Below, one piece after another: positions 5,090 to 25,984 of a stretch of DNA of 59,665 bases (positions are counted from its first letter, which is position 1; every line of letters starts with the position of its first letter). Where the stretch lies: NCBI GenBank assembly GCA_964546045.1, contig CAZJIF010000001.1, forward strand, positions 1 through 59,665, given 5' to 3'. The notes beneath the pieces were generated by a model. The model ran no database searches. It was not told where the DNA came from and saw nothing but the letters and a program-made list of their open reading frames with translations. Source of the stretch: an uncultured Klebsiella sp. (GTDB lineage Bacteria; Cyanobacteriota; Cyanobacteriia; PCC-6307; Cyanobiaceae). The position numbers were made by a program, and so were the translations under genes.

Positions 5090-5092
5090 GGC

Positions 5093-5359
5093 TCAGGCCT
5101 TGTCGACCTGCTCCTCGCTGCTGCCGAAGGCATGCAACAGAGCATCACCCCAGCTATTAATCGAGGCGAGTTGGTGGTCCTCAGCAGAGGCCAGCGCCTT
5201 GCCCTGCTCGCGCAGCAGCACCGCTTTGTCGAGGCTGTGGCCGTGGGCTGCAGCGATGGTCACCACATCGTCGACGCCGCTGGCTGCATGCAGCTTGTCG
5301 CGCAGCTGTCCATCAGCTGACACCGACGCAGCAAAGGAACGCAGAGCGGAAAGCGACAT
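5093..5359 (-). CDS. Nif11-domain small protein (88 aa)
   Basis: N-terminal LSALRSFAASVSADGQLRDKLHAA..DDVVTIAAAHGHSL follows the Nif11 leader pattern (L.AFL.KV..D..L...L......D.VV.IA...GF). No Cys and no Gly-Gly site. Confidence 0.7.
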   Translation of the reverse strand: MSLSALRSFAASVSADGQLRDKLHAASGVDDVVTIAAAHGHSLDKAVLLREQGKALASAEDHQLASINSWGDALLHAFGSSEEQVDKA

Positions 5360-5419
5360 GAGGGGAGGCGCAACGCTCCTGTCCTAGCAGCACAGGGCAC
5401 GGGAGCTACCGTTCATTCA

Positions 5420-8456: not shown

Positions 8457-8503
8457 CCAGCTGCAGCGATTGGCAATAGGGTTCGCCCGTCAGCTGATCG
8501 ACG

Positions 8504-9919: not shown

Positions 9920-9932
9920 ACCAAGGCCGCTG

Positions 9933-10736: not shown

Positions 10737-11455
10737 GGTTTGCGTTTGTGGTATCGACCAAGAATCAAGGCGATCAGGATGGCCACATAGAGCTGACCCG
10801 ACACGGTGATGATCGTCACAGCCACCTGTCCCAGGACATCGGTAGGGTTGACGACCGGCGTACCGACGGTGGTCAGCATGTTGAACGAAGCCGCCATCAA
10901 CGACGGAGCATCCGCCACAACCCCAGCCGATGCAGCACTGATCACAGTGGCCTTGGACAAGTTAGCCACCGTCAGACTGAGGGGGCTCAAGGCCGAAATG
11001 GCGATCAGCATGACGCCACCTGCAATGCCGACCAACAAATAGCCGGAGGCGGCACCCAGGACGACCGATGTGGTGACGTATGGCTCATTGATCAAGGTTC
11101 TGACCTTGCGCAACAACACCAGAACCAGAAAAATCAGCCAGACGATCACGTGCGGGATCGTCAACCACTGGCCAAGGGCAGGATTGAAGCGCAGGCCGAC
11201 ATGCCAGACCACCTCCATCAACACCGCGATGGCACCCAGGCTGTAGACGAGTGGCTTGGTGCGCCGCAGCGGCGAAAAACGACTGACAAACGCAATCAGC
11301 ACACTGGAGAGGCTGATCATCAAAACCGAAAGCAGCCAGGGAGCGTGCTGTGCCAGGGGCAGCAGCAACAGCAGCAGGATCTGCATGGCAAGCACGATCA
11401 GGTAGCCGCGATGACGGCGCTTCAACCTGAGCAGAACTTCCCGACTGACACGCAC
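10733..11455 (-). CDS. Channel-like paralogue of the downstream K+ channel with a degenerate selectivity filter (TTVGTPV)
   Basis: Collinear similarity to the 9933-10736 protein (VTTSVVLGAASGYLLVGIAGGV vs ITSSVLGGAIAGYLMLGITGGL; SGQLYVAILIALILGRY vs VGPLYIAIVMGLLISRY). The filter position reads TTVGTPV (10853-10873). ATGA overlap with the downstream gene. Confidence 0.7.
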   Translation of the reverse strand: MRVSREVLLRLKRRHRGYLIVLAMQILLLLLLPLAQHAPWLLSVLMISLSSVLIAFVSRFSPLRRTKPLVYSLGAIAVLMEVVWHVGLRFNPALGQWLTIPHVIVWLIFLVLVLLRKVRTLINEPYVTTSVVLGAASGYLLVGIAGGVMLIAISALSPLSLTVANLSKATVISAASAGVVADAPSLMAASFNMLTTVGTPVVNPTDVLGQVAVTIITVSGQLYVAILIALILGRYHKRKP

Positions 11456-11482
11456 CGCCTGGCTTCCACCACCGGGCGAATC

Positions 11483-12802
11483 ATGGCACTGATCGGCAGG
11501 CTGCCCACCCCCCCGCGCAGGCGTCGAACAGGGCTGCTGACGGTGCTGTTAACAGCGCTGGCACCTGCCGTGTTCACCGCAGGGACCCCGGCTTCTGCCC
11601 AAGCAGCAGACCCCGGAGAACCCGCATCAACGCTGGCGCCAACGCCGCTCTGGCCGTCGCTGGCGTCGGTGCTGGCCCTGCCCCCCTGGCTGAATCTGGA
11701 CCTGGAGCTGAGCGCCGAACCCATGGCCGGCAACGCCCCCGGCCTGGGCAGCAGCGGTGCCTGGATGCAGCAGCTGACGTTGACCGCCGAAGCCAGCCGC
11801 GGCCTGGGACGCGACAAAGGGCAATGGCAGGAGTTCGACCATTGGAAAACGAGCCTGCAGCTGACCGCCTTCAGCGGCAACCCCAACCTCAACCAAACCC
11901 TGGGGACTGCCTTTCCCCTGCAGACCGCAGCCCACCCCGTCGGCCTGTGGTTGACCGAAGCCACCGTGCAACGGGTGGCAGCTGGTGATCCGGTGTTCTT
12001 CAAGGCAGGCCTGATGGCATTGAATCCCTCCTTTGTTCAGAGCGAAGTCTTCAACAGCTACATCCATTCGGCACTCAATAACACCCTGAATCTTGAAATC
12101 AACGGGTTCCCGATCAATCCGTTCATCGCCCCGGCCGCGACGCTGCACCTTCATCTGGGTTCCAGCAGTGAGCTCAGGATTGGCCAGTTCTGGCTGGACA
12201 ATGTCAACAACCTTGCCAGCTTGTTCGGTGTCAATCCCCAACAGAACGCGGGCAGTGGCAGCTTGCAACTCGTGCAATGGAATTGGCGCGACCTGCCTGG
12301 ATCAGACGCTCTGCAGCAGCCGATCCGCCGTGGGGAGACGTTGGTGAGCCGCCAGCTGCCGCCTCCTTTGCTGCAGCTGGGTGGGTTCAACACCACGGGC
12401 CCCGATCCGAACCTGGGCCTTTATGGCACCCTGACGATGGCGGTTCCGCTGCCGGTGGGGCTTGATCATCGCGTCTGGGTCGGCTTCAACAACGGCTTCA
12501 CAATCCAGAACGACCCTGATCCCACCTTTGTCGCTGCAGGATGGCTAGCCCAGGGACTGCTGCCAGGGCGACCACTGGATGTTCTGGCCGTGGGGTATGG
12601 CAGCACCTGGTTCAACAACAATCTCAACGCCGGGCTGATTCAAGGACCCAACCCGGAAGCTGTCGTAGAGATCAACTACGCCATTCCGCTGAGCAGCCAG
12701 CTCACGATTCAGCCGGTGTTGCAATGGATCATGCAGCCGAGGGGCAGCAGCACCAGACAGTCCGTCGTTGCAGCGGGACTCCAAGTCAATCTCAGCTTCT
12801 GA
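11483..12802 (+). CDS. Outer-membrane porin, OprB (carbohydrate-selective porin)-like, without an SLH domain
   Basis: ATG 11483 gives a signal peptide (RRRRTGLLTVLLTALAPAVFTAGTPASAQA). The protein is beta-rich and Gly/Asn-rich. The C-terminus LTIQPVLQWIMQPRG...GLQVNLSF, with terminal Phe, is typical of OprB-type barrels. The track ORF from 10706 is an artefactual 5' extension. Confidence 0.6.
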   Translation: MALIGRLPTPPRRRRTGLLTVLLTALAPAVFTAGTPASAQAADPGEPASTLAPTPLWPSLASVLALPPWLNLDLELSAEPMAGNAPGLGSSGAWMQQLTLTAEASRGLGRDKGQWQEFDHWKTSLQLTAFSGNPNLNQTLGTAFPLQTAAHPVGLWLTEATVQRVAAGDPVFFKAGLMALNPSFVQSEVFNSYIHSALNNTLNLEINGFPINPFIAPAATLHLHLGSSSELRIGQFWLDNVNNLASLFGVNPQQNAGSGSLQLVQWNWRDLPGSDALQQPIRRGETLVSRQLPPPLLQLGGFNTTGPDPNLGLYGTLTMAVPLPVGLDHRVWVGFNNGFTIQNDPDPTFVAAGWLAQGLLPGRPLDVLAVGYGSTWFNNNLNAGLIQGPNPEAVVEINYAIPLSSQLTIQPVLQWIMQPRGSSTRQSVVAAGLQVNLSF

Positions 12803-12845
12803 AGCGACCGCGCTGCAGCATCAGGGTCAGGGTGATGGCAAGAGG

Positions 12846-13598
12846 TCAGGCTGTCGTCAGGAGATTGAGAATGGCCGAAATGACGGTTGAGTAAAAGAGA
12901 AAACTGATCACGGAGTGAACCAACACCATCCGCCGCATGCGCGCGTCTTCCAGGTTGACATCACTCATCGCGTAGGTCAGACCAACCGCAAAAGCAACGT
13001 AGAGAAAATCGGTAAAAATCGGCTCATCATTGCCCGCGAACACAAATCCCTGAGGATCGGGCCCGTCAGCAGCGGGGGCAGGATTAAGAGTGAAGTAATG
13101 CTTTGCATAATAAATCGCAAAGCCAATATGCAACTGCATCCACGTCGTGAACAAGGCCGCAAAATAGATAAAAATCCGCAACGACGTCGGCAGTGTGCTG
13201 ACTGAAGCATGCACGTCATGAATGCAGAGACTCAACAAGCCAATGCTCATGAACGCCAACAACACCGTGCGCTCAATCAACAGTTTGCGATTGGCCCGCC
13301 AGTGACCAAAAATCCGGCGGGTTGCCAGCGCTGAAAGCTTCTGCGACGACCGGGTGATGGCCAGCAGGTCAATCGCCATGGCCGCCAGAAAGCCGATCGA
13401 GGTGGCCTCATCCATGGGCAGCTCACGCAGCAACCCCACTGTCACGGCCGAACCGATCAACAGCCCGCGCAAGCCGCGGTAACCATCGTGAAAGCCGCGG
13501 GGGTGCTCGGGGGGTTCGACGATCAGGCGTCTGAGCTTGCGAAGGCCAAAACCCTTGCTCCCGCGGGGTCGAGCCGCCGTCGTCTCTGCCATGACCAC
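12846..13598 (-). CDS. DUF1345-family membrane protein
   Basis: Several TM helices. FAIYYAKHYF and DFLYVAFAVGLTYAMSDVNL...MVLVHSVISFLFYSTVISAILN resemble the conserved DUF1345 core as I recall it. Confidence 0.6.
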   Translation of the reverse strand: MVMAETTAARPRGSKGFGLRKLRRLIVEPPEHPRGFHDGYRGLRGLLIGSAVTVGLLRELPMDEATSIGFLAAMAIDLLAITRSSQKLSALATRRIFGHWRANRKLLIERTVLLAFMSIGLLSLCIHDVHASVSTLPTSLRIFIYFAALFTTWMQLHIGFAIYYAKHYFTLNPAPAADGPDPQGFVFAGNDEPIFTDFLYVAFAVGLTYAMSDVNLEDARMRRMVLVHSVISFLFYSTVISAILNLLTTA

Positions 13599-13737
13599 CG
13601 ATTCGCCACAGATCTGCTTCAGATGATGGCGGCGACCATGTCATGAGTCCACCGACTCGATGCGCCCCAGATGACTTGTTGGCGAAAAACCGTGGCACGA
13701 TGACAACAACGGAACTCCGCAGGTTTCTGCCGCTTCC

Positions 13738-14412
13738 ATGGCCCAGGCGTCAGCCCCCAACCAGCGCTCGCCTCGCTGCCGCAGCGGGATCGCCCACCTG
13801 CATCGACTGGATGCTGGGCACCAGCGGTTTCTCAATGGGCAATCGGAACATCCCCACGCCACCAGCCAGCGACTCAAACATCTGGTCCAGGGACAGCATC
13901 CAATCGCCGCGATCCTGAGCTGCGCCGATTCGCGTGTGCCGGTCGAGCTGCTGTTTGACGCTGGCTTTGGCGATCTGTTTGTGGTCCGCAATGCCGGCAA
14001 CACCTGCACCAGCGCGACGATCGCCTCACTCGAATACGGAATCCAGGCGCTGGGGGTTCCGCTGGTGCTGGTGATGGGCCACGAAGGCTGTGGCGCCGTG
14101 ACCGCGGCCTGTCAACCCCACGGGACCCTGACACCCGAACTGCACGAGCTGGTGCACACGATTCGCCAAGGGCTCGACGAGACCACACCCAGCCTCGATC
14201 TGCCGGCCGCCTTTCGCCAGAACCCGATCCAGTCGGCCCGCCACCTGGTGCGCGGCAGTGCCCTGATCCGCGAGCGCATCGCCGCAGGCCAGCTGCTGGT
14301 CGAGGCGGCCTATTACACGCTGTGCCGCGGCGAGATCGAATGGTTGGGGGCGATTGACACCGATGAGGGGTTGCAACAGCCCCATCTGCACCGATCAGAG
14401 ACCCACGGCTGA
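13738..14412 (+). CDS. Beta-class carbonic anhydrase
   Basis: Zinc and active-site motifs CADSRVPVE, FVVRNAGN and HEGCGAV. Confidence 0.85.
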   Translation: MAQASAPNQRSPRCRSGIAHLHRLDAGHQRFLNGQSEHPHATSQRLKHLVQGQHPIAAILSCADSRVPVELLFDAGFGDLFVVRNAGNTCTSATIASLEYGIQALGVPLVLVMGHEGCGAVTAACQPHGTLTPELHELVHTIRQGLDETTPSLDLPAAFRQNPIQSARHLVRGSALIRERIAAGQLLVEAAYYTLCRGEIEWLGAIDTDEGLQQPHLHRSETHG

Positions 14413-15336
14413 CGGCTGGGGTGCTGATGTCGACTGGCGCGGCACCAGATGGTGCTGGTGCAGCGAGGCATTCCAGTCGATGCGTCGACTGAAGCGCAGA
14501 CCCAACGACCCACCAAGCTGTCGGCCGGTCTCGCTGCCGCCGGTGAGTCCGGCGGCCAGATTGGCCCCAAGCCGTTCGCTGAAGCTTTCGGCAGTGGTGT
14601 CGCGCACCATGCCAACAAACCAGCTGCGATGACCGATCGAACGGCGCAGCGCTTGAGGACCGGTCAGATCGCTGGCGAGCTGTCCGCCCACCATGGCGCC
14701 AACGGCCAGTCCCGCCAGGGCGCCCACCGGGCCGGCCAAGGCCGACCCCAGCACCATGCCGGTGCTGGAGCCCGCCTCCTCACCAACGCGGGTGCCGAGC
14801 CGACGCCAGGTCATCTGTCCCAGGGTCCGAGGCACTGTTTTGGCCTGACCGTCGGCCACGGCACTGCCGATGGTGGAACCGATGACAGCCCCCAGGACGG
14901 AGCCCAGACCACCCAGGACCAGGGCCAGGGTTGGCCCACCCAGGACCCCACCCAGGGCCGCGCCGCCGCCGCCGACCACCACCTGACCGATGGAGGCGCC
15001 GATCAGATTGCCGCCGAGTTGGCGGCTCAGATGCAGCCAGGGACCGGAGTCTGCGGAGGAGTCAACCGCGTCGCCGCCATCCCTGGCTGCACCCCCATCC
15101 AATTGGCAGCCGAGCGACGCCAGGGCCAGTTGCCAGCGCACCACTGGACAGCCGGGCCTCAGTTCGAGCACCAGTGAACGGGAGGTCTGGCGCCGCTGCC
15201 AGGCGCGCAACCAGGACTGCACCGAAAGCTGATCGCAAAGACGATCCAATGCGTCTGGATCGGCATCCTGGGGCCATTGCAACCGCACCCGGTCCGGCAG
15301 CGCATGGGCGATCCGCAGGTGGAGGCTTGCTGGCAT
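14395..15336 (-). CDS. HMA-like (no CxxC) N-terminal module fused to a glycine-zipper membrane domain
   Basis: ATG at 15336 (MPASLHLRIAHALPDRVRLQW...) gives 313 aa. The longer track ORF would run across the divergent gene. The C-terminal two-thirds are GxxxG-rich (GGGGAALGGVLGGPTLALVLGGLGSVLGAVIGSTIGS; GPVGALAGLAVGAMVGG). Confidence 0.65.
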   Translation of the reverse strand: MPASLHLRIAHALPDRVRLQWPQDADPDALDRLCDQLSVQSWLRAWQRRQTSRSLVLELRPGCPVVRWQLALASLGCQLDGGAARDGGDAVDSSADSGPWLHLSRQLGGNLIGASIGQVVVGGGGAALGGVLGGPTLALVLGGLGSVLGAVIGSTIGSAVADGQAKTVPRTLGQMTWRRLGTRVGEEAGSSTGMVLGSALAGPVGALAGLAVGAMVGGQLASDLTGPQALRRSIGHRSWFVGMVRDTTAESFSERLGANLAAGLTGGSETGRQLGGSLGLRFSRRIDWNASLHQHHLVPRQSTSAPQPSAVGL

Positions 15337-15420: not shown

Positions 15421-15714
15421 ATGTTTGAGCTCGAAACCCTCATCGCCATGGGCGTCGGCGCCGCCCTGGTCGCCGTGGCACCTGTGGTGGCCTCCGTCAC
15501 GGGCCGGGAACACAAGCTGGCCACCTCGATCAGCGCCGCTGGTCGCAACCTGACCAAACAGGGTCTCAAGCTGGGAATCTGTCTGGCGGACAAGTCCTCC
15601 GGACTGGTGCGCAAGGTTGGCCACGGACTGTCAGAAGCCGGCGAAAGCCTGACGGACCTGGTGGCCGAAGCCCGTGCCGATCTTGAGCAGGCCAAAGCCG
15701 CCAAGAACGGCTGA
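15421..15714 (+). CDS. Small membrane protein, DUF5132-like (97 aa), copy 1
   Basis: ATG 15421 gives MFELETLIAMGVGAALVAVAPVV...GESLTDLVAEARADLEQA. Clear paralogue of 17324-17692. The pattern matches DUF5132 as I recall it (N-terminal TM helix plus C-terminal DLVAEA+.E helix). Confidence 0.7.
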   Translation: MFELETLIAMGVGAALVAVAPVVASVTGREHKLATSISAAGRNLTKQGLKLGICLADKSSGLVRKVGHGLSEAGESLTDLVAEARADLEQAKAAKNG

Positions 15715-15737: not shown

Positions 15738-16244
15738 GTGACAACGCAAGCGACCTACCGGGTGAAGCACCGGCTTCCCCACCGGGTCCGGATCGATTTT
15801 GGCGAGCGACTGAGCCCGGAACAGCTGCGCAGTGTGATCTGGTTGCTGGAACACCACGACCCCGGGGCCGTGGTGCGACCAGCCGCGTCGGGCCATGGTC
15901 TGGTGATCTGCAGCACCAGCCCAGACCAACCGCTGATCGATCCGCTGCCGAGGCTGGACCAGGTGCTGTGCGAACCGGTCGCCCATCTGATCGAGCTGCC
16001 GCCCCAGGGCCTCCAGAAACTGATCCGCCAGTCACGCCAGGGCACCCTCAAGCTGCTCATCACCCTGGCGATCGCTGGCTGGGCGTTGCCGATCCTGCCG
16101 GGAACGCCTTTTTTCCTGTTGGCCTGGTGGATGGGTTGGCGACCGGAACCCAAAACCAACACCACCGGCAGCAACCCGGTGGATCAGGACAGGCCAATCT
16201 CCAACCAGGGAGAGTCGATCCGCGCTGAACGGCACGTCAGTTGA
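15738..16244 (+). CDS. HMA-like (no CxxC) module fused to a YbaN/DUF454-like membrane tail
   Basis: GTG start. N-terminus YRVKHRLPHRVRIDF. The C-terminal LLITLAIAGWALPILPGTPFFLLAWW matches the YbaN motif (LGVVLPVLPTTPFILLAAW). Confidence 0.65.
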   Translation: MTTQATYRVKHRLPHRVRIDFGERLSPEQLRSVIWLLEHHDPGAVVRPAASGHGLVICSTSPDQPLIDPLPRLDQVLCEPVAHLIELPPQGLQKLIRQSRQGTLKLLITLAIAGWALPILPGTPFFLLAWWMGWRPEPKTNTTGSNPVDQDRPISNQGESIRAERHVS

Positions 16245-17242
16245 GCGCGCTCAGGCGGCAAGGGCACGTCCAACTGCAAGCCACCGCTGCGGATCAGCAA
16301 CTGCTGATCCGCCTGGCGCACCCGCAGAGTCTCACGGACCAGACCCGGCAGCAACAACCGGCAGCGGCAGCCATCAGGCCCATCGATCCAACAACAGGTT
16401 TCAGCGCGCAAGGGTTGCTCCAGCCAGGACTCGAAGGCCAAAGGTGACGGCGTCGATCGGCCAAGCATGATCGGCAGCTCCCAGCGGGCGACAAGCTGAT
16501 CGCGAACCGAAGGTGCCAGATCGCCCTCCAGCCATAGACGGGGCTGGGCCAGGCCGCACAGGGCCAACGCCGCCACCCGACCATCCAGCAGCGGTAGATC
16601 CTCGGCATCGGCTGCCAGGGCCACCACCGCCTCGACCGCCTCAGGCACCTGCCGCAGGCGGCTCGCCAGGTCCTGCAGGCATGAACGCCAAACAGGCGAC
16701 AGCGCCAGGCTTTCAGCGTCTGGAAGGCGCAGGCGCAACACCAGCTCGAACTGGGCCAGGCGCTGACGGGTCTGGCTCCACCAGAGCAACAGTGGCGACC
16801 AGAGTCCCTCAAGCAGCTCGGGCCCCCGACGCAGCAGCTGCAGGATTTCGGTCGTCTGGGCCAGGGGAGGCATCACCACCACAAGGGCGATCCCTGCTTG
16901 CAGCGCGTGCCAGCCCTGGGCCAGATAAAGCGCACGCAGCACCGTGCCGAGACCTGGAATGGCGCCAAGGCAAGGCCGTTCGCCATCAACAGCGTCCAGC
17001 TCCAACAAGGCGAACCAGGGGGCCAGGGCCGGTAGCAGGTCCTGCCAGATGGTGTCGGCCCAGGCTTCAGGGTCGTAGCGCTGGAGTGGCTGGTGCGGCC
17101 TGGAGAGGACCAGGTCGCCGGCCAGATCCATCACCGCGGCCGCCTGACCCAGGCGGTCACACCGGTCCAGAACCGCCTGGGCCAGCCGGCGCCGCTGCGG
17201 CGCCGTGTCTGCCACCAAAAGCACCAACGGGGACGCCTCCAT
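16184..17242 (-). CDS. ArsA/Get3-like protein lacking the Walker A P-loop, with a C-terminal HSP20-like domain
   Basis: ATG 17242 (MEASPLVLLVADTAPQRRR...). IPGLGTVLRALYL....ALVVVMPPLAQTTEILQLL parallels the ArsA PG.dE / D.aPTGhTLrLL region. The C-terminus LRVRQADQQLLIRSGGLQLDVPLP...ARIDSPWLEIGL resembles the ArsA HSP20-like domain. No GKGGVGKT is present. Confidence 0.5.
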   Translation of the reverse strand: MEASPLVLLVADTAPQRRRLAQAVLDRCDRLGQAAAVMDLAGDLVLSRPHQPLQRYDPEAWADTIWQDLLPALAPWFALLELDAVDGERPCLGAIPGLGTVLRALYLAQGWHALQAGIALVVVMPPLAQTTEILQLLRRGPELLEGLWSPLLLWWSQTRQRLAQFELVLRLRLPDAESLALSPVWRSCLQDLASRLRQVPEAVEAVVALAADAEDLPLLDGRVAALALCGLAQPRLWLEGDLAPSVRDQLVARWELPIMLGRSTPSPLAFESWLEQPLRAETCCWIDGPDGCRCRLLLPGLVRETLRVRQADQQLLIRSGGLQLDVPLPPERAQLTCRSARIDSPWLEIGLS

Positions 17243-17758: not shown

Positions 17759-20290
17759 GTGCTTGCTGAAGAGTCGCCCCGGCTGCGCCGCCCCGGACGC
17801 GTTCATACCTCGACAGAGCGTCCCCGGCTTGTCCCTGTTCCCCTGAGCCTGGCGAGCAACGGTGACACAGGGCATCAACAGCCTCAGCTGATCTGCGGTT
17901 TGGTGCATGCCAGTGGCACCAGAATCCGGCTGCGGATCGATGCCGAACCCCTTGCCCAGCAGCGACTGCACGCGGCGCTGAAAGCCAAGCCCGAGATTGC
18001 CCAGGTCCGGATCAACAGCCTGGCCTGCAGCTGCGTGATCCAGTTCAGGGATCGTCAGGCCACCCCTGCGACGGACGCGGCCCTGAACGCGTGGCTCGGG
18101 CAGCTGCCGATTGCGATCGATGGCACTGAAGCCAGCACCGCAAAGCCCACCGGCACCGGGCCTGACGAGGAGGAGGACGCATTCGTTCCCTCACGCATCA
18201 TCCTGCCGGTCAGCTCCCTGGCTCTGGCCCTGCTGGCCGGCCCCCTGGCCCTGCCCCCGCTGGCCGTTGCTGGATTCATCCTGGTCTCGGCTCACCTGAG
18301 CTTCAAACGGGCCTGGGCCGGTCTGAAGCAGGAACGCAAGATCAACGTCGACTTTCTCGACGCCCTCGCCGTCACCCTGCACAGCCTGGAAGGGTTCCTG
18401 GTCGGCCCCGCGCTGATGATCAGCATGATCGAGGGTGGCGAAGCAGTGCGCGATGCCACCCAGCGCATCGCCCACTCGGCCAACACCGACCTGCTGGCCA
18501 GCCTGCAGGCCGATGTGCGCCGGTTGCGCAGCGACGGCAGCGACGAGATCGTTCCCAGCACCGACCTGGTGGCCGGCGACCGAGTTCTGTTCTTTCCGGG
18601 CGACAGCATCCCCATCGACGGCGTGATCGACAGCGGCGAAGGCAGCTTCGACGTGGTCAAGCTCACCGGCGAATCGGTGCCCCGCCATGCAGTGGCCGGC
18701 GATGAGGTGTTGGCTGGATTCATCCTGCTCGAAGGGTCCCTGGTGGTCGAGATCCGCGCGGTGGGCGATGACACCCGGATCGGCCAGATCACGGCGATGA
18801 TCGAATCAGCCCCCGTCTACGACACCCGGGTTGGCAATTTTGCCGCCAAGATCGCCAACCGATTCGTCATGCCGACCCTGCTGCTTGCAGGCGTCTCACT
18901 GTTGCTCAGCGCAGGCAATGTGGCCCAGGCCGCATCCCTGCTGATGTTCGACCTGGGAACCGGCCTGCGCGTCTCGGTGCCCACGGCGATCATGGCTGCC
19001 CTGACCCGCGCCGGCTCTCAGGGTCTGTTGATCCGCAGCGGCCGAGCCCTCGAGCAACTGGTCGACATCGATGTCGTGGTCTTCGACAAGACCGGCACCC
19101 TGACCCAGGGCCATCCCTCGGTGGTGCATGTCGATGTGCTCCACAGCGAACTGTCGCGCGAACGGCTCACCTGGCTGGCCACCACGGCAGAACAGGGCCT
19201 GAACCATCCAGTGGCAACGGCGATCGTCGATTACGCCGAGGTCCAGGGGCTGCAGCCCGGGACCTGCGACAGCTGGGATTACCGCATCGGCAAGGGCGTC
19301 AGCGCGGTGATCGATGGTCACCGGGTCCTGATCGGCAACGCCAAGATCCTGCGCGACGAATCGCTGGACGTTCCCGAGCTTCACCCCGAACAGGCCCTGC
19401 GCTCGTCGACACCGATCTATCTGGCGGTCGACGATGTGGTGGCGGCGGTCTTTTATGCCGCCGACCAACTGCGGCCGGACAGCCGTGATCTGGTTGCCGA
19501 ACTGCACCGACGGGGCATTCAGGCCCACATGCTGACCGGCGATGTGGCCAGTGTCGCCAATGCCGTGGCCGCCGAGCTTGGCCTTCAGCCCGATGAGGTT
19601 CATGCCGAGGCACTGCCGGATCAGAAGGCCGAACTCGTCAAACAACTCAGCGAGCAGGGGCACAAGGTGGCGTTTGTCGGCGACGGCATCAACGATTCGG
19701 CGGCACTGGCCTATGCCGATGTGTCGATCTCATTTGCCTCCGGCAGTGATCTGGCGCGGGAGACCGCCGACATCGTGCTCACCAACGACAAGGTCTCAGG
19801 CCTGATCACCGCCCAGGATCTGGCCAAGCGCACCTTTGCCCTGGTGAAGCAGAACATCAGCATTGTGGGTGTCCCGAACCTGTCGGCCCTGGTGATCGGC
19901 ACGTTTGTGCCGGTCAGTCCGATTGCGGCTGTGCTGCTGAACAACGGCTCCTGCCTCGTGGCAGCCGCCAATGCGCTGAGAACGCTGGGCTTCACCCCCA
20001 GCCCACTGCCCCAAGCCGATGCGGCAGCCTCCGGTTCCGAGGCCGTGGTTGCCGTTGACGTGGTGGCCAACACACCTGCGCAGAGCGAAGCAATCCGCAG
20101 GGAACAGCCGGCAGAACCGCTCAACCTGACGACCCAGGCCCTTGCCAAGCGCCTGGGCACCTCCCATCAGACCGTCAGCGCCCGCCGCCGCCGTGGTGAT
20201 CTGGCGGACTGGAGCCGCAGCCTCGATCCCGAAGGTCGGTCCTGGACCCAGGAATCCGCCAGCGGCCGCTATGTGAGCATCAGCGCCTGA
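17759..20290 (+). CDS. P-type ATPase of P1B (heavy-metal) architecture with an HMA-like N-terminus and no CxxC or CPx motifs
   Basis: Catalytic motifs are present: TGES (KLTGESVP), DKTGT (19085-19099), NHP (SEHP-type), MLTGD and GDGINDSAAL. The start is uncertain because no in-frame ATG occurs before codon 220; GTG 17759 or TTG/GTG near 17899-17904 are candidates. Confidence 0.8.
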   Translation: MLAEESPRLRRPGRVHTSTERPRLVPVPLSLASNGDTGHQQPQLICGLVHASGTRIRLRIDAEPLAQQRLHAALKAKPEIAQVRINSLACSCVIQFRDRQATPATDAALNAWLGQLPIAIDGTEASTAKPTGTGPDEEEDAFVPSRIILPVSSLALALLAGPLALPPLAVAGFILVSAHLSFKRAWAGLKQERKINVDFLDALAVTLHSLEGFLVGPALMISMIEGGEAVRDATQRIAHSANTDLLASLQADVRRLRSDGSDEIVPSTDLVAGDRVLFFPGDSIPIDGVIDSGEGSFDVVKLTGESVPRHAVAGDEVLAGFILLEGSLVVEIRAVGDDTRIGQITAMIESAPVYDTRVGNFAAKIANRFVMPTLLLAGVSLLLSAGNVAQAASLLMFDLGTGLRVSVPTAIMAALTRAGSQGLLIRSGRALEQLVDIDVVVFDKTGTLTQGHPSVVHVDVLHSELSRERLTWLATTAEQGLNHPVATAIVDYAEVQGLQPGTCDSWDYRIGKGVSAVIDGHRVLIGNAKILRDESLDVPELHPEQALRSSTPIYLAVDDVVAAVFYAADQLRPDSRDLVAELHRRGIQAHMLTGDVASVANAVAAELGLQPDEVHAEALPDQKAELVKQLSEQGHKVAFVGDGINDSAALAYADVSISFASGSDLARETADIVLTNDKVSGLITAQDLAKRTFALVKQNISIVGVPNLSALVIGTFVPVSPIAAVLLNNGSCLVAAANALRTLGFTPSPLPQADAAASGSEAVVAVDVVANTPAQSEAIRREQPAEPLNLTTQALAKRLGTSHQTVSARRRRGDLADWSRSLDPEGRSWTQESASGRYVSISA

Positions 20291-20295
20291 AGCCG

Positions 20296-20841
20296 ATGCA
20301 CGCGCTGGACTGCCTGCAAACGGTCCACAGCAGCCCGGGCCGACTGCGTTACCGACTCCGTGCAGCCAAGCCAATCCCCTGGCCCGAACTGCAGCGGGAG
20401 CTGGATCAACGGTTGACCGGACTGCCCATCTACTGGCGTCTCACCCCGGGGGCCTGTTCAGTGCTGTTGGTGTACCGCCCACCACACGACGACCTGAGCG
20501 ATGGACCCGACGTCGCCGCAGCCATCCTGCGCCAGGCCAGCCAACGGTTGATCGCCGCCCTGGAGGCATGCGGCGTCACCCCCGCCGCACCCGAGCTGAT
20601 CGAGATCCGAACCCAGCAGCACAACAACCGGCTAGCAGCATTGCAAGCCTTGGGATCAGGCCTGATCAATGGACTCTCGGCAGGGGTGAGTCTGCTGCTG
20701 GTGGCCCTGGCCAGCCTGCTCATCCTGCTGGGCAGCCTGGGGTTGATGGTTCCCTGGGGCCCTGGCAGCCTGCTGCTGCTGCTGGCCTATGGATTGGTGG
20801 AGCTGGCCCTGTGGGTGCGCCAACCGTTCGTCAACGCCTGA
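20296..20841 (+). CDS. HMA-like (no CxxC) module fused to a two-TM YbaN/DUF454-like tail
   Basis: ATG lies 5 nt after the ATPase stop. N-terminus VHSSPGRLRYRLR...PGACSVLLVY. The C-terminal LLGSLGLMVPWGPGSLLLLLAYGL parallels the tail of the 15738-16244 protein. Confidence 0.65.
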   Translation: MHALDCLQTVHSSPGRLRYRLRAAKPIPWPELQRELDQRLTGLPIYWRLTPGACSVLLVYRPPHDDLSDGPDVAAAILRQASQRLIAALEACGVTPAAPELIEIRTQQHNNRLAALQALGSGLINGLSAGVSLLLVALASLLILLGSLGLMVPWGPGSLLLLLAYGLVELALWVRQPFVNA

Positions 20842-22339
20842 CGACAGGCTGAACCAAAGTCGCAGTCACATCGCGCAAGGGGATCGACGGATGCCCCCAG
20901 CCCTCGGTGGGCAGAGCCCCATTCGAAGCAAACCAGGCCAGGATCAGGGCATCGAGGGGCGATTCGATCGCAGCAGTCGCAGGGGCACGCAGGTTGAAGT
21001 GATCGCCACCCTCAGCCAGCACCAGCCGATGGTTGCCGATGCCGGTGTTGAGCGCCATGCGCCGCAGCGGCTCGATCGCTTCGGGCCCCGCCGGCACCAC
21101 CCAGTCCCGGGAGCCGCTGACCACGAGCGCGGAGGCATGCATGGCTCCGGCCGCACCGGGAGCGAACAACAGGCGCATCGGCGGGCTGACGGCCACAACC
21201 GCCGTGACACGCCGGTCAGCGAGGGCAGCCTGGTCGGCAGCACCAAGAAAACTGCACTGCAGCACCCAGCTGAGGTTGTGGGCAGGATCCTTGAGGTTGT
21301 TGCACTCCTCACGCAACAGCCTCGAACTGGGGGTGACACCCGCGAGCTGCAGCACCGTCGTGGCACCCCAGGAGTGGCCGGCCGCCAGCACCCGGGTGGT
21401 ATCAACCCTGGTGCTGAGGCCAAGGCGACCATCAGCCGCCGCGTCGATCAGGGCTGACACGTCCTTGGGACGCTGCTTCAGCTCCTCGGGACCGGGCGGC
21501 GCTGTCTTACCGGCCAGCATGGCGTGTTGCTGCGCCGCATCGCTGCCCGGATGCTCGGGCAGGACCACCGTGTAGCCATGACTGGCCAGATGGTGGGCCC
21601 AGGACTCGAAATTCGCAGGGCTGTCCCACAACCCGTGGGAAACCACCACCAACCGGCCGTTGCCTCCCGACACCGGTTCGATCACCACACCCCGCAAACG
21701 CACAGGCCGATGACTGACCGCCAGGTCAAAGCTGCGACGACGGTGGGCCACGGGGCCACGCGTGCTGAAACGGCCCGATTGCGCCGCGGGCTGAGCCGCC
21801 AACAGCGGAACGGCTGCCGCCTGCTGACGCTGCAGGCGCGTCAGGGCTGCTAGCAGGCGATTGAGATCCACGGTGGCCGTTCTGCCGGGCACAGCCGCCA
21901 GCACATCCGCCAGGCTGAGGGTCCCGTCGTTGGCGGCGGCCTGTCGCAGGGCCAGTTCCAGTTCTTCTCTGCCGGTGGTGGGCGGAGCGGAGAGGCCGTC
22001 GACATCTCCCAGAGCTGCGATCAGCAACAACACCTGATCCAGCAGGGAACTGCCCTGGGCCACCCGTGCCAGCGAACCCAGCTGCAACGGCAGGGCTGAA
22101 TCCAGCAACGTGGCCAGCTGCCGGCCGATCGCGCCATTGGTGGCGCGGTTCAGCTCGGCCAGGTCGCTGTTTCCAGCAGCCAGCGATCGGGGATCGCGCA
22201 GATCGGAGACCTTCAGCGTGAAGGCCTCCGGGATCATCGGCAGCTTGATCCGGATCGTCTCGAGGGCGCGGGCAGGAGCCGCCGTCAGCGTCGCCAACAC
22301 CAGGCCTGCCATCAGGCGAAAGGCGCGCTGCACGTGCAT
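20831..22339 (-). CDS. Secreted alpha/beta hydrolase with a DUF1400-like N-terminal domain
   Basis: ATG 22339 gives a signal peptide (MHVQRAFRLMAGLVLATLTAAPARA). ETIRIKLPMIPEAFTLKVSDL is DUF1400-like. Nucleophile elbow GHSWG. Confidence 0.65.
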   Translation of the reverse strand: MHVQRAFRLMAGLVLATLTAAPARALETIRIKLPMIPEAFTLKVSDLRDPRSLAAGNSDLAELNRATNGAIGRQLATLLDSALPLQLGSLARVAQGSSLLDQVLLLIAALGDVDGLSAPPTTGREELELALRQAAANDGTLSLADVLAAVPGRTATVDLNRLLAALTRLQRQQAAAVPLLAAQPAAQSGRFSTRGPVAHRRRSFDLAVSHRPVRLRGVVIEPVSGGNGRLVVVSHGLWDSPANFESWAHHLASHGYTVVLPEHPGSDAAQQHAMLAGKTAPPGPEELKQRPKDVSALIDAAADGRLGLSTRVDTTRVLAAGHSWGATTVLQLAGVTPSSRLLREECNNLKDPAHNLSWVLQCSFLGAADQAALADRRVTAVVAVSPPMRLLFAPGAAGAMHASALVVSGSRDWVVPAGPEAIEPLRRMALNTGIGNHRLVLAEGGDHFNLRAPATAAIESPLDALILAWFASNGALPTEGWGHPSIPLRDVTATLVQPVVRR

Positions 22340-22356
22340 GGGAAATCTGAGCCTGC

Positions 22357-22376
22357 AGGCGCATTCTGACCTTGGC
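22357..22376. promoter_or_regulatory. Inverted repeat tgacctt-N6-aaggtca in the divergent region between the hydrolase and pseudo-ATPase genes
   Basis: Read directly. 22357-22363 tgacctt is the reverse complement of 22370-22376 aaggtca. Confidence 0.25.
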
Positions 22377-22443
22377 CCGAAGGTCACGTCGCCAGAGCAG
22401 CCACCGGAGGCTTCTGCCATACCGGAACGCCGTCATCACTGCG

Positions 22444-24648
22444 ATGATGACCCTTGTCATCTCCGCTTCATCGATGGCTTCGCCTGCAGCAGTTGCAGAG
22501 GCCGCCACTGGAATGACCTGGACAGTCGCCAGTGATCTGCCGGGTCGTCTCAGAGTGCGCAGTGAGGACCTGGTCGCCTCGCCCCTGCTGCGCCATCACT
22601 GCAAGCTGGTGCTGACCAGCTGTCACTGGCTGGTTCAGTTCAGGATCAACCCCTTGGCGGGCAGCCTCTGCGTCGGCTACCCCCAGCACCGCCGCCATGA
22701 ACTGCTCGCTCTGCTCGAGCAGGCCTTGCGCCTGAACACCGCGGACGATGGACTGGCGCCACTGCCACCAGCGCCATTCTCAGGAGCGCGGGTCAGGCGG
22801 ACCCTGGTGCATGGAGCAGCCTGCCTGGCTTTGATCAGCTTTGAAAGCGTCCTGGCCGTGCCGACGGTGGTGATGGTTGGCCTCAGCTCGGTGCTGCTGC
22901 TGCCGCTGGCTCGTGAGGTGCTGCACCAACTGCGGCGGCGCAAGCTCACCGTCGAAAGTCTGGAACTCAGCTTTTCTGGTCTTCTGGTCAGTCAGGGACT
23001 CACCGGAGAGGCCCTGCTGGATCTGGCGATCGGTGATGCGGTCGAGGTCGCCCAGAGCGCCGTTGAGCGCGACGATCTCGACCTCAATGCCGACCATGTG
23101 CTGCAACGTCTCGGCGAGCGGGTCAGCCTCAAGTCGGTTGACGACAGCGGGCAGACCCTGTCTGTCTTGCTCAGGGATGTGGACCTGGGCCTCACCATCC
23201 GCATTGAGCGCCGCGAGCACTGTTTGCTCTCAGCACGGCTGCTCAACGGTGAACTGATCGTCGTCAACCGGCTGGTTGATGGCGACTGGCGGCCCCAACG
23301 GCTGCGCCAGGGGGATCTGCTCGAATCTGGTGCCCTGGTGATCTTCGGTGAGGCAGAAGCCAGAATCGAGCAATGCATCCATACGGATCCTGCCTATAGC
23401 CTTCTGCGGGACCATTCAGCCAAGGCAAAGCAGGACCCCACGGGTGCCGAGCTTTGGGTCCACCGGTACAAACGGGTGATGCCGCCCCTGCTGCTGAGCC
23501 TGGGCGGTGTGATGTTGTCAGTCGGGTCGACCGACGCAGCCCTGGCCGCCTTTCAGTTCAACCCACTGAGTGACTGGGAGGAGCAGAAACTGGCATCCCA
23601 ATTCACAACCATTGCCGATCTGAACCTTCACAAGCTGAGGATTCGCAAACCTGCTTCGATCGAGGACATCGGCAAGATCCGCCACCTGGTGATCAGCCGC
23701 AGCTGCCTGGACCGGATCGGGGGCATCCAGGTGCGCGAACAGATCCACGACCCCGCCCGGACCGCAACCGGTTCCCTGGTCCAACTTCTGGCAGGCATTC
23801 AACACTGGATCTGCGGCAACGACGGCGCCGCTCTCTGGTCAACACAATTGCAGAAGGTGGCTGATCCTGTTGTTGTTGAACACGTCGAGATCCGGCAACT
23901 TCACGAAGGGTGGACCATCACCGCAGCTGATGGCCGCTGCTGGCAACTGCGGCAACAGGCCATGGACCCAGGCAAACGCTGCCACACCCATCTCAATCCC
24001 CTCGAAGTCTGGCAGGACGAGACACTGTTGGGGATTGTGGACCTGCTCAGTGAACCCGACCACCATTGGCAGGCCACCTGCCAAAGCCTGCGAGAGCTGG
24101 GCATTGAGATTCATCTGATCACCGCGGAAGAGGTGGAACGGCTGGATGAGATTGCCGGGCCTCTGGGCATTGACCAAGATCACTGCTATGGGTCATTCAC
24201 AGCCCTGGACCGGCTGGAGTTGGTGCAGCGGCTTCAGCAGAGTGGTCAGGGAGTGGGCTACATCGGCTATGTGTTGCACGATCTGCCGGCCCTGGCCCAG
24301 GCAGACGTCTCCCTTGGTTTGGACGTCGATGATGACAGCCGTTATTTGTCGACCATCTGCGACCTGTCGCTCGGCTCAGACGCACTCTGGTTGCCGCGCC
24401 TGATCAAGATCAGCCGCAGCATGCAACGGGCCTCCGACCAGAATTTCAGCCTGCTGGCCGCCTCCCAGGTGTTGGCCTCCTTGGCTACAGCTGCCGGTTG
24501 GATCGTTCCCCTGCAGACCGTGTTGCTGAGCGATGTCCCGCTGCTACTCGCTGAACTCAACAACCTACTGGCGCTGCAGGCTCCTAAACAGCTGGCGGCT
24601 GAGCAGCCAGCAACCGTCGGTGCAAAGCCGGCAAGATCAGGCTCTTGA
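22444..24648 (+). CDS. Catalytically degenerate P-type-ATPase paralogue (pseudo-ATPase) with an HMA-like N-terminus
   Basis: Collinear with the 17759-20290 protein, but DKTGT is SRSCL (23695-23709), TGD is TAE, GDGIND is GYVLHD (24265-24282), and TGES is absent. Start candidates are ATG 22444, 22474 or 22513; the track start is TTG 22372. Confidence 0.65.
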   Translation: MMTLVISASSMASPAAVAEAATGMTWTVASDLPGRLRVRSEDLVASPLLRHHCKLVLTSCHWLVQFRINPLAGSLCVGYPQHRRHELLALLEQALRLNTADDGLAPLPPAPFSGARVRRTLVHGAACLALISFESVLAVPTVVMVGLSSVLLLPLAREVLHQLRRRKLTVESLELSFSGLLVSQGLTGEALLDLAIGDAVEVAQSAVERDDLDLNADHVLQRLGERVSLKSVDDSGQTLSVLLRDVDLGLTIRIERREHCLLSARLLNGELIVVNRLVDGDWRPQRLRQGDLLESGALVIFGEAEARIEQCIHTDPAYSLLRDHSAKAKQDPTGAELWVHRYKRVMPPLLLSLGGVMLSVGSTDAALAAFQFNPLSDWEEQKLASQFTTIADLNLHKLRIRKPASIEDIGKIRHLVISRSCLDRIGGIQVREQIHDPARTATGSLVQLLAGIQHWICGNDGAALWSTQLQKVADPVVVEHVEIRQLHEGWTITAADGRCWQLRQQAMDPGKRCHTHLNPLEVWQDETLLGIVDLLSEPDHHWQATCQSLRELGIEIHLITAEEVERLDEIAGPLGIDQDHCYGSFTALDRLELVQRLQQSGQGVGYIGYVLHDLPALAQADVSLGLDVDDDSRYLSTICDLSLGSDALWLPRLIKISRSMQRASDQNFSLLAASQVLASLATAAGWIVPLQTVLLSDVPLLLAELNNLLALQAPKQLAAEQPATVGAKPARSGS

Positions 24649-25984
24649 TCAGCATGCTGAGGACCACAGTAAAGCAAACAGCATCGACAATGAACGATTC
24701 GGAGACGGGGTGAATCACGCGTTCAAACGGAATACCACTTTCTTCAATCAAATCAGGGATCGTGATTGCCAAGGCCATGGAAATGGCTCCCTTTGGGGCC
24801 CAAAGAGACAGAAATTGCTTCTCGCGCATATCCAGGAATGTTGATCCGCGGAAAAAGAGAAAAACGGTCAAAGGCCTCAAAATCCAGACCACACAAAGCA
24901 GAATGACGGCAGCAAATAGAGTGGGAAGAAATCCCACACTCAGGTCTACGGCCAGACCTGCCATAAAAAAGATCAGCGACTCGGAAGCGATGTTGATGGA
25001 CTCGAGCTGCACCGAGAGAATCTCTTTCTCATCCTCGGTATCCTGGCCGGAGAGAAGGATGCTGACGACGAAACCCATGACCAGGCTGCAGACCAGACCA
25101 CCTTGTCCAATCCAGGCATTGAAGCCGTAGCCGATCATCACGAACCCGATGGCCAGATCGATTGACTGGGAACGCTCGACGGCGAACCGCTTGATCGTTG
25201 CCGCGAGCAAGTAGCCGAGCACGGCTCCGATCACAATGCCCTGGGAAATGCTGCCGACAAAGATATCGACAGCCTTTGAAGCCATCGTGCTGGTGCCTTC
25301 ATCCGTGAAGAACTCAAACAGAGCCTGGCCAATCACCAGGGTCATCGCAGCACTGATGGCAGTTTCAAATTCGAGCACTCCCATCACACGATCACTGAAA
25401 CGCTCAACACGCTTGACAATGAAAGTGAAAGCACCCCAGTCGAGTGGCGCGATGCAATAGGCCAAAGCCAAAGCAATCAACAATGGCTGCTCACTGGTGA
25501 CGTACTCAGCATTGACCGCGCTGAGGGCGTAGTACATGACAACCGACCCCACGGCGATCACAATGAACACGCCGAAAACCGAGATCAACAGACTGGGGAT
25601 GACAAACTCTTGCCTTTTAAAGTAACGCCTGCATATCTTAACGCCGCTGTAGAACAATAACAAACAAAGCGCGATAACATGCAGATCTTCAAATCCCTTG
25701 TGGTCAAAGGCCGAATTGGACATCGGCTGTATGGCCACACCAGCGCCAAACAATGCAATCGCACCAGGGATGCCAATCCGCAGCGCGTAGCGGTCGATCA
25801 CAATGCTGAAGACAAGAATGGCGCCGATGGCAGCCAACTGAACCGGCAGGCTGCCAAGCGCCTCAGCACGGACAGCTTCAGCAGCAGACATGGTCGATTC
25901 GACTGCCGATTCAGCAGCAACGGCCAGGACGTTGAACCAATTCTGTTGGATCAACAGAACCACAGGCGTTAGCAGCAGATGCAC
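24584..25984 (-). CDS. Cation:proton antiporter (Na+/H+ exchanger, CPA1-like)
   Basis: About 12 predicted TM helices with general Na_H_exchanger family appearance. Visibly lower GC (about 50%) than its neighbours. An alternative start is ATG 25891. Confidence 0.6.
   Translation of the reverse strand: MHLLLTPVVLLIQQNWFNVLAVAAESAVESTMSAAEAVRAEALGSLPVQLAAIGAILVFSIVIDRYALRIGIPGAIALFGAGVAIQPMSNSAFDHKGFEDLHVIALCLLLFYSGVKICRRYFKRQEFVIPSLLISVFGVFIVIAVGSVVMYYALSAVNAEYVTSEQPLLIALALAYCIAPLDWGAFTFIVKRVERFSDRVMGVLEFETAISAAMTLVIGQALFEFFTDEGTSTMASKAVDIFVGSISQGIVIGAVLGYLLAATIKRFAVERSQSIDLAIGFVMIGYGFNAWIGQGGLVCSLVMGFVVSILLSGQDTEDEKEILSVQLESINIASESLIFFMAGLAVDLSVGFLPTLFAAVILLCVVWILRPLTVFLFFRGSTFLDMREKQFLSLWAPKGAISMALAITIPDLIEESGIPFERVIHPVSESFIVDAVCFTVVLSMLIKSLILPALHRRLLAAQPPAV

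Follow-up and report, generated by a model that had tools for sequence, protein, structure and literature searches.

Identification of a P-type ATPase without catalytic residues

The window analyzed here is a stretch of 59,665 nucleotides (contig CAZJIF010000001.1 of assembly GCA_964546045.1), deposited as an uncultured Klebsiella sp. and placed by GTDB in the Cyanobiaceae. At positions 22444 to 24648 of its forward strand lies a gene for a P1B-type ATPase paralogue in which the catalytic motifs have been replaced; we refer to it as the dead ATPase. The protein comprises a CoBaHMA domain, helices MA, MB, and M1 to M6, and the A-, P-, and N-domain folds. The original prediction, made by eye from the letters of the window, had described an intact open reading frame (ORF) with an altered phosphorylation loop and an altered GDGxND motif; the ORF is real, and the positions given for SRSCL and GYVLHD are exact. 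The gene and its elements, all on the plus strand, are as follows.

22444..24648, +: dead P1B-type ATPase paralogue, 734 aa (ORF, profile alignment, AlphaFold2 and Foldseek, orthologues, dN/dS)
22513..22728, +: N-terminal CoBaHMA (PF19991 HMA_2)-like domain, residues 24-95 (Pfam, hits in orthologues, AlphaFold2, identity)
23005..23040, +: helix M2, unusually acidic (GEALLDLAIGDA), of low hydrophobicity; E189, D193, and D198 invariant; helix 187-211 in the AlphaFold2 model
23275..23295, +: A-domain loop VDGDWRP at the LTGESxP position; G280, W282, and P284 invariant (hhalign, motif table)
23551..23580, +: helix M4 motif FQFNPLSDWE, which replaces CPC; Q371, F372, N373, P374, D377, and W378 invariant
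23692..23712, +: former phosphorylation loop ISRSCLD, with S418 at the phospho-Asp position; S418, S420, and C421 invariant
24121..24129, +: TAE (residues 560-562) at the TGD position; site variable across the family
24265..24282, +: GYVLHD (residues 608-613) at the GDGxND position; only G608 and D613 kept
24388..24579, +: helices M5-M6 (LLSDVPLLLAELNN), a putative hard-cation site; N667, Q691, D697, P699, and E704 invariant

The ORF, which stops at 24648, could start at a TTG at 22372 or at the ATG at 22444; the ATG is favored because an orthologue that is 96% identical (P0001) is also 734 aa long. GC contents at the three codon positions (0.69/0.44/0.72) are those of a coding frame and typical for the genome. 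A scan for promoters and terminators around the gene found none and was uninformative.

Register of the replaced motifs

In searches with the sequence alone (Pfam, NCBIfam, BLASTP, phmmer), only the C-terminal third of the protein was clearly recognized. The NCBIfam model TIGR01525 matched residues 543-732 only (56.9 bits against a cut-off of 346.25; E 1.7e-15). The Pfam matches to E1-E2_ATPase (PF00122, score 20.2, cut-off 28.1), Hydrolase (PF00702, score 16.4, cut-off 26.4), and HMA_2 were all below threshold. BLASTP against the neighboring ATPase (17759-20290) gave 26% identity over 164 aa, pairing TGD with TAE and GDGIND with GYVLHD, and the closest solved structure by sequence, in a phmmer search against the PDB, was LpCopA (3rfu). 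Since these searches left the register at the phosphorylation site unsettled, profile-profile alignment and structure prediction were needed.

An alignment of 23 dead-ATPase orthologues was compared with an alignment of 13 bona fide P1B ATPases that included the neighbor. The two were collinear in hhalign over 631 columns (probability 99.96%, E 7.4e-39). An AlphaFold2 (AF2) model built on the orthologue alignment (predicted local distance difference test [pLDDT] 75.9, predicted template modeling score [pTM] 0.68) begins with a beta-alpha-beta domain and contains helices that correspond to MA, MB, and M1-M6; its A domain is rich in beta structure, and the N domain is inserted into a P domain of Rossmann-like fold. 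Foldseek searches of the PDB with this model returned P-type ATPases only; ZntA was the top match (4umw, E 1.9e-29, TM-score 0.69 on the target, 642 columns), followed by 4umv (E 1.6e-27). These two structures represent the E2.Pi and E2P states of ZntA, which weakly suggests that the modeled conformation is closest to the E2 states. The collinearity with P1B ATPases asserted in the original prediction is borne out by both approaches, and because the profile alignment and Foldseek agree, its manual register at the phosphorylation site was right: a Ser occupies the phospho-Asp position.

In the hhalign register, F-D-K-T-G-T-L-T corresponds to I-S-R-S-C-L-D-R, with SRSCL (residues 418-422, nt 23695-23709) in the place of DKTGT. 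The A-domain motif L-T-G-E-S-x-P corresponds to V-D-G-D-W-R-P, so TGES has become DGDW (D279-W282); a 'TGEA' at residues 187-190 is part of helix M2 and should not be taken for the A-domain motif. The CPC region of M4 reads FQFNPLxDW and keeps only the Pro of CPC. TGD is replaced by TAE, and PxxK by xxDR, the P-domain Lys having become an invariant Arg (R590). The SEHP (HP) motif of the N domain is without a counterpart. The substitution of DKTGT, confirmed by hhalign and by a motif table compiled over 148 superfamily members, the absence of TGES, and the change of TGD to TAE had all been noted by eye and stand in the aligned register. The claim that GDGxND was destroyed is correct as to its replacement by G-Y-V-L-H-D, but the first Gly (G608), the last Asp (D613), and the 'ADVS' that follows are retained. 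Nearly the whole dead family has Ser or Thr at the phospho-Asp position; the P0019 lineage has an Asp there, in a loop that is otherwise degenerate.

The protein thus has no nucleophile, no TGES, no Mg2+-ligand Asp (now Tyr), and no HP motif. To judge from these substitutions, it is P1B-type by descent, falls short of a functional pump on every catalytic criterion, and cannot run the Post-Albers cycle; since all residues of the phosphoenzyme cycle are lost, it is predicted to be unable to act as an ATP-driven pump.

Orthologues and selection

A word-indexed protein search recovered at least 57 cluster representatives of the dead ATPase, ranging from 96% down to about 24% identity and nearly all 700-775 aa long; beyond these clusters, ordinary CPC/DKTGT ATPases appeared at E ~1e-7. 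The named sources are Cyanobium and unclassified picocyanobacterial metagenome-assembled genomes (MAGs), and every family member sampled comes from a MAG or a metagenome. Scanning one genome per GTDB species gave 16 loci, all in picocyanobacteria (Cyanobium, Vulcanococcus, Synechococcus UW140-like, and 'Prochlorococcaceae'). Family members carry the public labels 'hypothetical protein', 'HAD family hydrolase', 'cation transport ATPase', or 'soluble P-type ATPase'; the second and third imply an activity that is impossible for the dead ATPase. Orthologues with the same substitutions do exist: HLVISRSCLDRIGGI, NRLVDGDWRP, FQFNPLxDWE, GYVLxDLPALxQADVSIG, DVDDDS, and WLPRLI are conserved across the 23 aligned orthologues, and conservation of the replacement motifs extends to at least 57 clusters and 16 picocyanobacterial species.

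We calculated the ratio of nonsynonymous to synonymous substitution rates (dN/dS) by the Nei-Gojobori method (NG86), using only unsaturated pairs (dS 0.2-0.95). The dead ATPase gave 0.11-0.17, and its active counterpart from the same genomes 0.10-0.15; in the lineage of the window, where the operon is split (see below), the ratios of the dead ATPase were 0.135-0.155. For comparison, the gene for the 181-aa protein described below gave ~0.2-0.3, and the NhaP gene 0.05-0.11. The ratios of the dead ATPase are near those of the active pump and exclude neutral decay. The check for purifying selection therefore agrees with the full-length orthologues and the conserved substitutions in upholding the view, put forward in the original prediction, that the gene encodes a retained pseudo-enzyme. 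By its homology to enzymes, the loss of catalytic residues, and purifying selection, the dead ATPase is a pseudoenzyme.

Relationship to active ATPases

A hidden Markov model (HMM) scan of 1.84 billion representatives yielded 173 proteins at E <= 1e-30. The top ~25 matches all lack DKTGT and form at least three subclades. The window protein belongs to clade I ('ISRSCLD / QFNP..DW'); an 'ISINxL' group and clade II ('V/ITE(A/S)V / QFDP..DWQL') are two more. In a neighbor-joining tree, which is crude, the dead subclades form one long-branched, all-dead lineage that is separate from all active clades. The best-scoring active relatives (P0094, P0096, P0100, and P0101) have 'LAELN' in M6, as in the dead lineage, and 'LQLDFGTG' in M4; the physical neighbor belongs to a different clade, with 'FDLGTG' in M4 and 'LLNNGSCLVAAANAL' in M6. 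Since the nearest active relatives and the neighbor are in different clades, the dead ATPase is an ancient paralogue. The possibility that it is a recent tandem duplicate of the neighboring ATPase was rejected, the dead lineage being deep and grouping away from the neighbor's clade in this crude tree.

Degenerate phosphorylation loops also occur in other CoBaHMA-ATPase lineages, some of which read FAKTGT or FGKTGT and others of which retain only the D of DKTGT; the proteins concerned are P0102, P0112, P0115, P0127, P0205, the P0109-P0155 group, and the P0117-P0179 group. Their sequences suggest repeated loss of catalysis in the CoBaHMA-ATPase superfamily. Locus L020 contains a second, distantly related dead paralogue near the genes described below (11767-13908, minus strand). 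This protein, from another picocyanobacterium, belongs to clade II. Its CoBaHMA domain includes the His; ITESVL takes the place of DKTGT and GEDADV that of GDGxND, and M4 reads QFDPLSDWEL.

Conservation along the protein

The original prediction had called the N-terminus HMA-like. It is HMA-related, but it is not a classical HMA domain; it is a CoBaHMA/HMA_2 domain that lacks CxxC. The CoBaHMA domain, to which PF19991 corresponds, was first described in calcyanin (bioRxiv 10.1101/2024.07.07.602159; PMC8890360). On the isolated domain the Pfam HMA_2 model gave a weak match (E 0.0023, 18.3 bits) below its cut-off of 30, and precomputed PF19991 matches are present in the orthologues P0036, P0038, and P0042. 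In the AF2 model this region forms strands (26-32, 35-40, 65-69, and 74-78) and helices (47-58 and 81-94), and thereby has both the ferredoxin-like HMA core and the extra N-terminal strand beta0 that define the domain (PMC8890360). LPGRLRVR, SCHWL, and FRIN are family-invariant, as are the basic residues R35, R37, and R67 of beta1/beta2. The conserved His of beta0 is missing; the dead ATPase has Ala or Ser there (…VASDLPGR…). The 181-aa protein, calcyanin, and the active ATPase all have this His. The domain has been proposed to bind anionic lipids, according to work cited in bioRxiv 10.64898/2025.12.07.689555.

Mean pairwise identity and invariance were determined by domain in 12 genomes that carry both the dead and the active ATPase. 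In the dead ATPase, identity is highest in M5-M6 (0.63; active ATPase 0.86) and the CoBaHMA domain (0.62; active 0.40), followed by M1-M2 (0.58; active 0.94), M3-M4 (0.55; active 0.91), the two halves of the P domain (0.48-0.51; active 0.90-0.91), and the N domain (0.43; active 0.66); the A domain has the lowest value (0.41; active 0.82). Invariant residues number 130. Conservation within the dead ATPase is strongest in the CoBaHMA domain and in a membrane core with many acidic and amide residues. The invariant, mostly polar positions of this core include Q371, N373, P374, D377, and W378 in M4, N667 in M5, and Q691, D697, P699, and E704 in M6. Of these, D697 adjoins the M6 ligand position of P1B pumps when the profiles are aligned. 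From this side-chain chemistry we infer that the conserved residues would be ligands for a hard cation, not for Cu+, Zn2+, or Cd2+.

Genes adjacent to the dead ATPase

The neighboring genes to which the argument refers are listed below.

13738..14412, +: beta-carbonic anhydrase (Pro_CA, E 6.8e-33; conserved synteny)
14395..15336, -: CoBaHMA-type calcyanin (ccyA)-like gene, 313 aa (features described in PMC8890360)
17324..17692, +: DUF5132-like small membrane protein, first gene of the module (upstream of the ATPase in every locus; weak DUF5132 match, E 0.013)
17759..20290, +: active CoBaHMA-P1B-like ATPase, 843 aa (TIGR01525, 481.7 bits, cut-off 346; motifs; synteny)
20296..20841, +: 181-aa protein, CoBaHMA plus DUF454-like helical hairpin (invariant H11, R16, and R18; hhalign; DUF454)
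20831..22420, -: alpha/beta hydrolase (DUF1400 and Abhydrolase_1 in Pfam), a lineage-specific insertion that splits the module
24584..25984, -: NhaP-type Na+/H+ exchanger (Na_H_Exchanger, E 4.9e-31; synteny)

The module consists, in this order, of the DUF5132-like gene, the active CoBaHMA-ATPase, the CoBaHMA/DUF454 hairpin protein, and the dead ATPase as its last gene. In a profile search of the fetched loci, in which identities are ~35-96%, this order was kept in every locus with enough upstream flank except L003. In several genomes the module is tight, with a 1-nt overlap between genes in L022 and 3-6 nt between them in the P0055 contig and L020. In other genomes the gene for the 181-aa protein is invariably placed between those of the two ATPases. 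The insertion of the hydrolase between hairpin gene and dead ATPase is confined to the window and its two closest relatives, L004 and L005. Because the linkage to an active ATPase is operon-like and nearly universal, the partner or channel-like role suggested in the original prediction gains support, unproven as it is. Beyond the module, recurrent neighbors are the beta-carbonic anhydrase, a DUF1345 gene, an ArsA_HSP20-like gene, and NhaP, with CAX in L022.

The active ATPase retains TGES, DKTGT, TGD, and GDGIND, and FDLGTG replaces CPC in its M4, which reads LLMFDLGTGLRVSVP; its M6 reads LLNNGS. The protein is one of a large superfamily of CoBaHMA-linked P1B-like ATPases. A conserved C-terminal tail of ~100 aa (nt 19991-20290) has weak helix-turn-helix matches. 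The N-terminal half of the 181-aa protein matched the CoBaHMA domain of the dead-ATPase family in hhalign (E 2.3e-4), and a DUF454 match to its C-terminal hairpin was found in 8 of 11 orthologues.

In L017, a MAG from Lake Mendota, a nonsense codon interrupts the dead ATPase (…LPA*AMELAFS…), and the reading frame of the active ATPase is split in two (disrupted genes at 4913-7471 and 7995-10211); this double disruption could be joint pseudogenization or an assembly error. A second MAG labeled 'uncultured Klebsiella sp.' (L007, CAYFMB010000059.1) carries the whole picocyanobacterial module at 56-74% identity, and its Klebsiella label is probably a binning or labeling error. The convergent dead-ATPase (+) and NhaP (-) genes overlap at their 3' ends by 65 nt in the window (24584-24648); comparable overlaps of 38-52 nt are present in L004 and L005, and there is none in L006.

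A calcyanin-like gene

The gene ccyA is the published marker of intracellular amorphous CaCO3 (iACC) biomineralization. The source annotation of the calcyanin-like gene in the window is 'hypothetical protein' only. Its product has the invariant beta0 His and the invariant basic (Arg) residues, followed by three GlyZip repeats; the second contains the invariant Ala-Gly-Pro and weakly matches the PdsO model, and the third contains the invariant Trp and the near-invariant Glu. A tblastn search with this protein against plasmids, aimed at the ccyA of the Fischerella NIES-4106 megaplasmid, gave no match. Because no published calcyanin sequence was matched, the identification is by these diagnostic features only.

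A calcyanin-like gene lies nearby, within 8 kb, in the window and in L006, L010, L014, L017, L018, L019, and L022 by profile search, and is adjacent in L008 by tblastn only, which brings the total to the window and eight other loci. The dead ATPase sits in a Ca2+/carbonate-related neighborhood; maintained by selection next to an active pump and the calcyanin-like gene, it is a candidate part of the machinery that forms intracellular CaCO3. In Microcystis PCC 7806, ccyA is flanked by genes for two DUF5132 proteins, a CoBaHMA-DUF454 protein, and cax (bioRxiv 10.1101/2024.07.07.602159).

CAX-type Ca2+/H+ exchanger genes (PF01699) were found at 2-748 in L003 and at 1-723 in L022, where the copy is at the edge of the cluster.

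Interpretation

Our preferred reading, held tentatively and with slightly less than even confidence, is that the dead ATPase is a non-catalytic partner in the cation pathway of the adjacent pump, where it would bind or conduct a cation, probably Ca2+. This reading is favored because of the module order, the joint disruption in L017, the conserved polar membrane residues, and the Ca2+/carbonate context. The CoBaHMA domains of the dead ATPase, the pump, the hairpin protein, and calcyanin would direct all four to the same anionic-lipid membrane site. The membrane core, made up of E189, D193, and D198 in M2, N373, P374, and D377 in M4, N667 in M5, and D697 and E704 in M6, would form a binding site or a passive conduit for a hard cation, most likely Ca2+. 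The co-conserved DGDW and SRSCLD loops may dock the A and P domains, in which case the head would be fixed, or gated by a ligand or partner, and would not cycle. The likely role would be in Ca2+/carbonate homeostasis tied to the formation of intracellular amorphous CaCO3. In a stronger form, which we consider doubtful, the dead ATPase would be an obligatory, ATP-independent Ca2+ subunit of a heteromer with the active CoBaHMA-ATPase and the CoBaHMA/DUF454 hairpin protein, working with calcyanin to load or buffer Ca2+ at the CaCO3 compartment.

Several observations weigh against our preferred reading. In the window's lineage the opposite-strand hydrolase separates the dead ATPase from the pump operon, and in L003 the dead ATPase lies 2 nt downstream of the CAX gene and not of the pump, the contig ending there; because of these two arrangements, strict co-transcription with the pump is not required. 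Synteny among related picocyanobacteria is in part shared ancestry. About five loci (L001/L013, L011, L016, L020/L021, and the P0055 contig), among them the Synechococcus UW140-like clade, contain the module without an adjacent calcyanin gene, so a link to biomineralization is not obligatory. The case for Ca2+ as the specific ion comes solely from conserved side-chain chemistry, M1-M2 and M4 are weakly hydrophobic, and the AF2 model, with a pLDDT of 76, is of moderate confidence. Literature searches on dead or pseudo P-type ATPases, on picocyanobacterial P-type ATPases, and on calcyanin together with ATPases found no description of the family; a survey of CoBaHMA proteins (Gaschignard et al. 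2024, Proteins 92:776), which was outside that search, may list the architecture.

Some of the same facts would suit a protein that is independent of the neighboring pump: a passive cation channel, a uniporter, or a membrane cation sensor with a gating or regulatory head. The membrane core with its acidic and amide residues is the best conserved of the catalytic-core elements, the dN/dS of ~0.14 was kept after uncoupling from the pump operon in the window's lineage, and the gene directly follows CAX in L003. We regard such a stand-alone derivative as possible but on the unlikely side, since the gene adjoins those of the active ATPase and the hairpin protein in nearly all loci at 35-96% identity and is disrupted together with the pump in L017; the matched conservation of the A and P loops suggests docking of domains and not a bare pore. 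That the protein is purely a scaffold, targeting factor, or regulator that binds no ion, and tethers or inhibits the pump or recruits it to the envelope of the carbonate granule, is rather unlikely. The invariant polar and acidic residues in M2, M4, M5, and M6 and the M4 proline would be hard to explain in such a protein, even though its CoBaHMA domain is more conserved (0.62) than that of the active pump (0.40) and three or four CoBaHMA proteins are clustered at the locus.

Two further alternatives have much less in their favor. ISRSCLD is among the most conserved segments, with S418, S420, and C421 invariant in the 12 genomes, so some role of the former phosphorylation pocket is conserved. 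That the protein is still an enzyme, with Ser418 or Cys421 as an unconventional nucleophile or with phosphatase or ATPase activity by another route, is nevertheless very improbable: Tyr has replaced the Mg2+-ligand Asp and Arg the Lys, TGES and the HP motif are lost, and deeper members of the family have T, or even D, at the S418 position in otherwise different loops. To our knowledge, the nucleophile of all HAD and P-type enzymes is an Asp. That the gene is a pseudogene in decay, or an ORF that high genomic GC has left open by chance, is scarcely credible and was rejected on dN/dS and conservation: the in-frame stop in one MAG (L017) and scores below all curated cut-offs are set against ratios of 0.11-0.17, at least 57 full-length clusters, 16 species, 130 invariant residues in 12 genomes, and codon-position GC of the coding type.

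Comparison with other systems

The dead ATPase has the eight-helix topology and the A/P/N order and fold of P1B ATPases such as ZntA (4umw/4umv) and LpCopA (3rfu), and the C-terminal half of its P domain together with M5-M6 is still recognizable as P1B by sequence. Unlike ZntA and LpCopA, it has no DKTGT, TGES, TGD, GDGxND, CPC, or HP motif, and a CoBaHMA domain replaces the CxxC HMA domain; its candidate membrane ligands are Asp, Glu, Asn, and Gln, whereas those of P1B pumps are Cys, His, and Met. With the CoBaHMA P1B-like ATPases (M4 'xDxGTGxRxSxP', the neighbor included) it shares the CoBaHMA N-terminus and the absence of CPC; however, these retain all catalytic motifs, and the dead lineage is a long-branched clade of its own with at least three subclades.

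KdpFABC, the alpha and beta subunits of F1, and heterodimeric ABC transporters with a degenerate site combine active and non-hydrolyzing partner subunits that are encoded in the same operon. The concept in common with our preferred reading of the dead ATPase is that of an active subunit with a non-hydrolyzing partner that handles ions or has a structural role. KdpA, however, derives from a channel and not from a P-type ATPase, and a complex with the dead ATPase is hypothetical.

Among published proteins, the closest parallel to a P-type fold that has outlasted its catalytic residues is the P4-ATPase flippase module of the alveolate guanylate-cyclase chimeras (P4GC), which in some lineages lost the Asp of DKTGT and the Glu of LDGET (PMC13466520). 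In both cases the P-type fold is kept despite altered phosphorylation and dephosphorylation residues, and in P4GC it is needed (PMC13466520). In P4GC, a eukaryotic module of the P4 type is joined to a cyclase; the dead ATPase is bacterial, of the P1B lineage, free-standing, and genetically paired with an active paralogue.

The neighborhood of ccyA in Microcystis aeruginosa PCC 7806 includes the DUF5132, CoBaHMA-DUF454, and Ca2+/H+ exchanger families that are also found around the dead ATPase, but no P-type or dead ATPase has been reported from it, and its calcyanin has no CoBaHMA domain. According to a 2025 paper (PMC11773610), functionally equivalent ATPases had not been found for iACC in cyanobacteria. 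If the heteromeric Ca2+ complex outlined above existed, it would supply the component reported missing there (PMC11773610), and the dead ATPase would be the first pseudo-P-type ATPase that stands free and has a defined role.

The phosphorylated Asp is the defining feature of P-type ATPases, and here a free-standing bacterial lineage keeps the whole fold with new conserved motifs. Because the fold has remained under selection after every catalytic motif was replaced, the P-type scaffold is reusable for tasks other than pumping, and since related CoBaHMA-ATPase lineages have also degenerated, this may be a recurrent evolutionary route. The dead ATPase is a natural 'frozen' pump for structural work. 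The genes of the cluster are testable candidates for cyanobacterial Ca2+ handling in carbonate formation, in which so far only ccyA is firmly implicated.

Other genes at the locus

An ArsA_HSP20-domain protein is encoded divergently upstream of the module (16184-17242, minus strand) in a conserved position. Against PDB sequences it gave a marginal match to All4481 (3igf, E 0.4); an ArsA ATPase domain was not detected in it, and a P-loop was not evident by eye. It is possibly Get3d/All4481-like and may be a second degenerate NTPase in the cluster. Another DUF5132-like small membrane protein is encoded at 15421-15693 (plus strand), and both DUF5132-like genes overlap spurious 5' extensions of long ORFs on the opposite strand. 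The gene for the DUF1345 membrane protein (12846-13598, minus strand) is syntenic in most loci. Upstream of the cluster are genes for an Ion_trans_2 channel (9933-10736, minus strand) and an OprB-family porin (10706-12802, plus strand).

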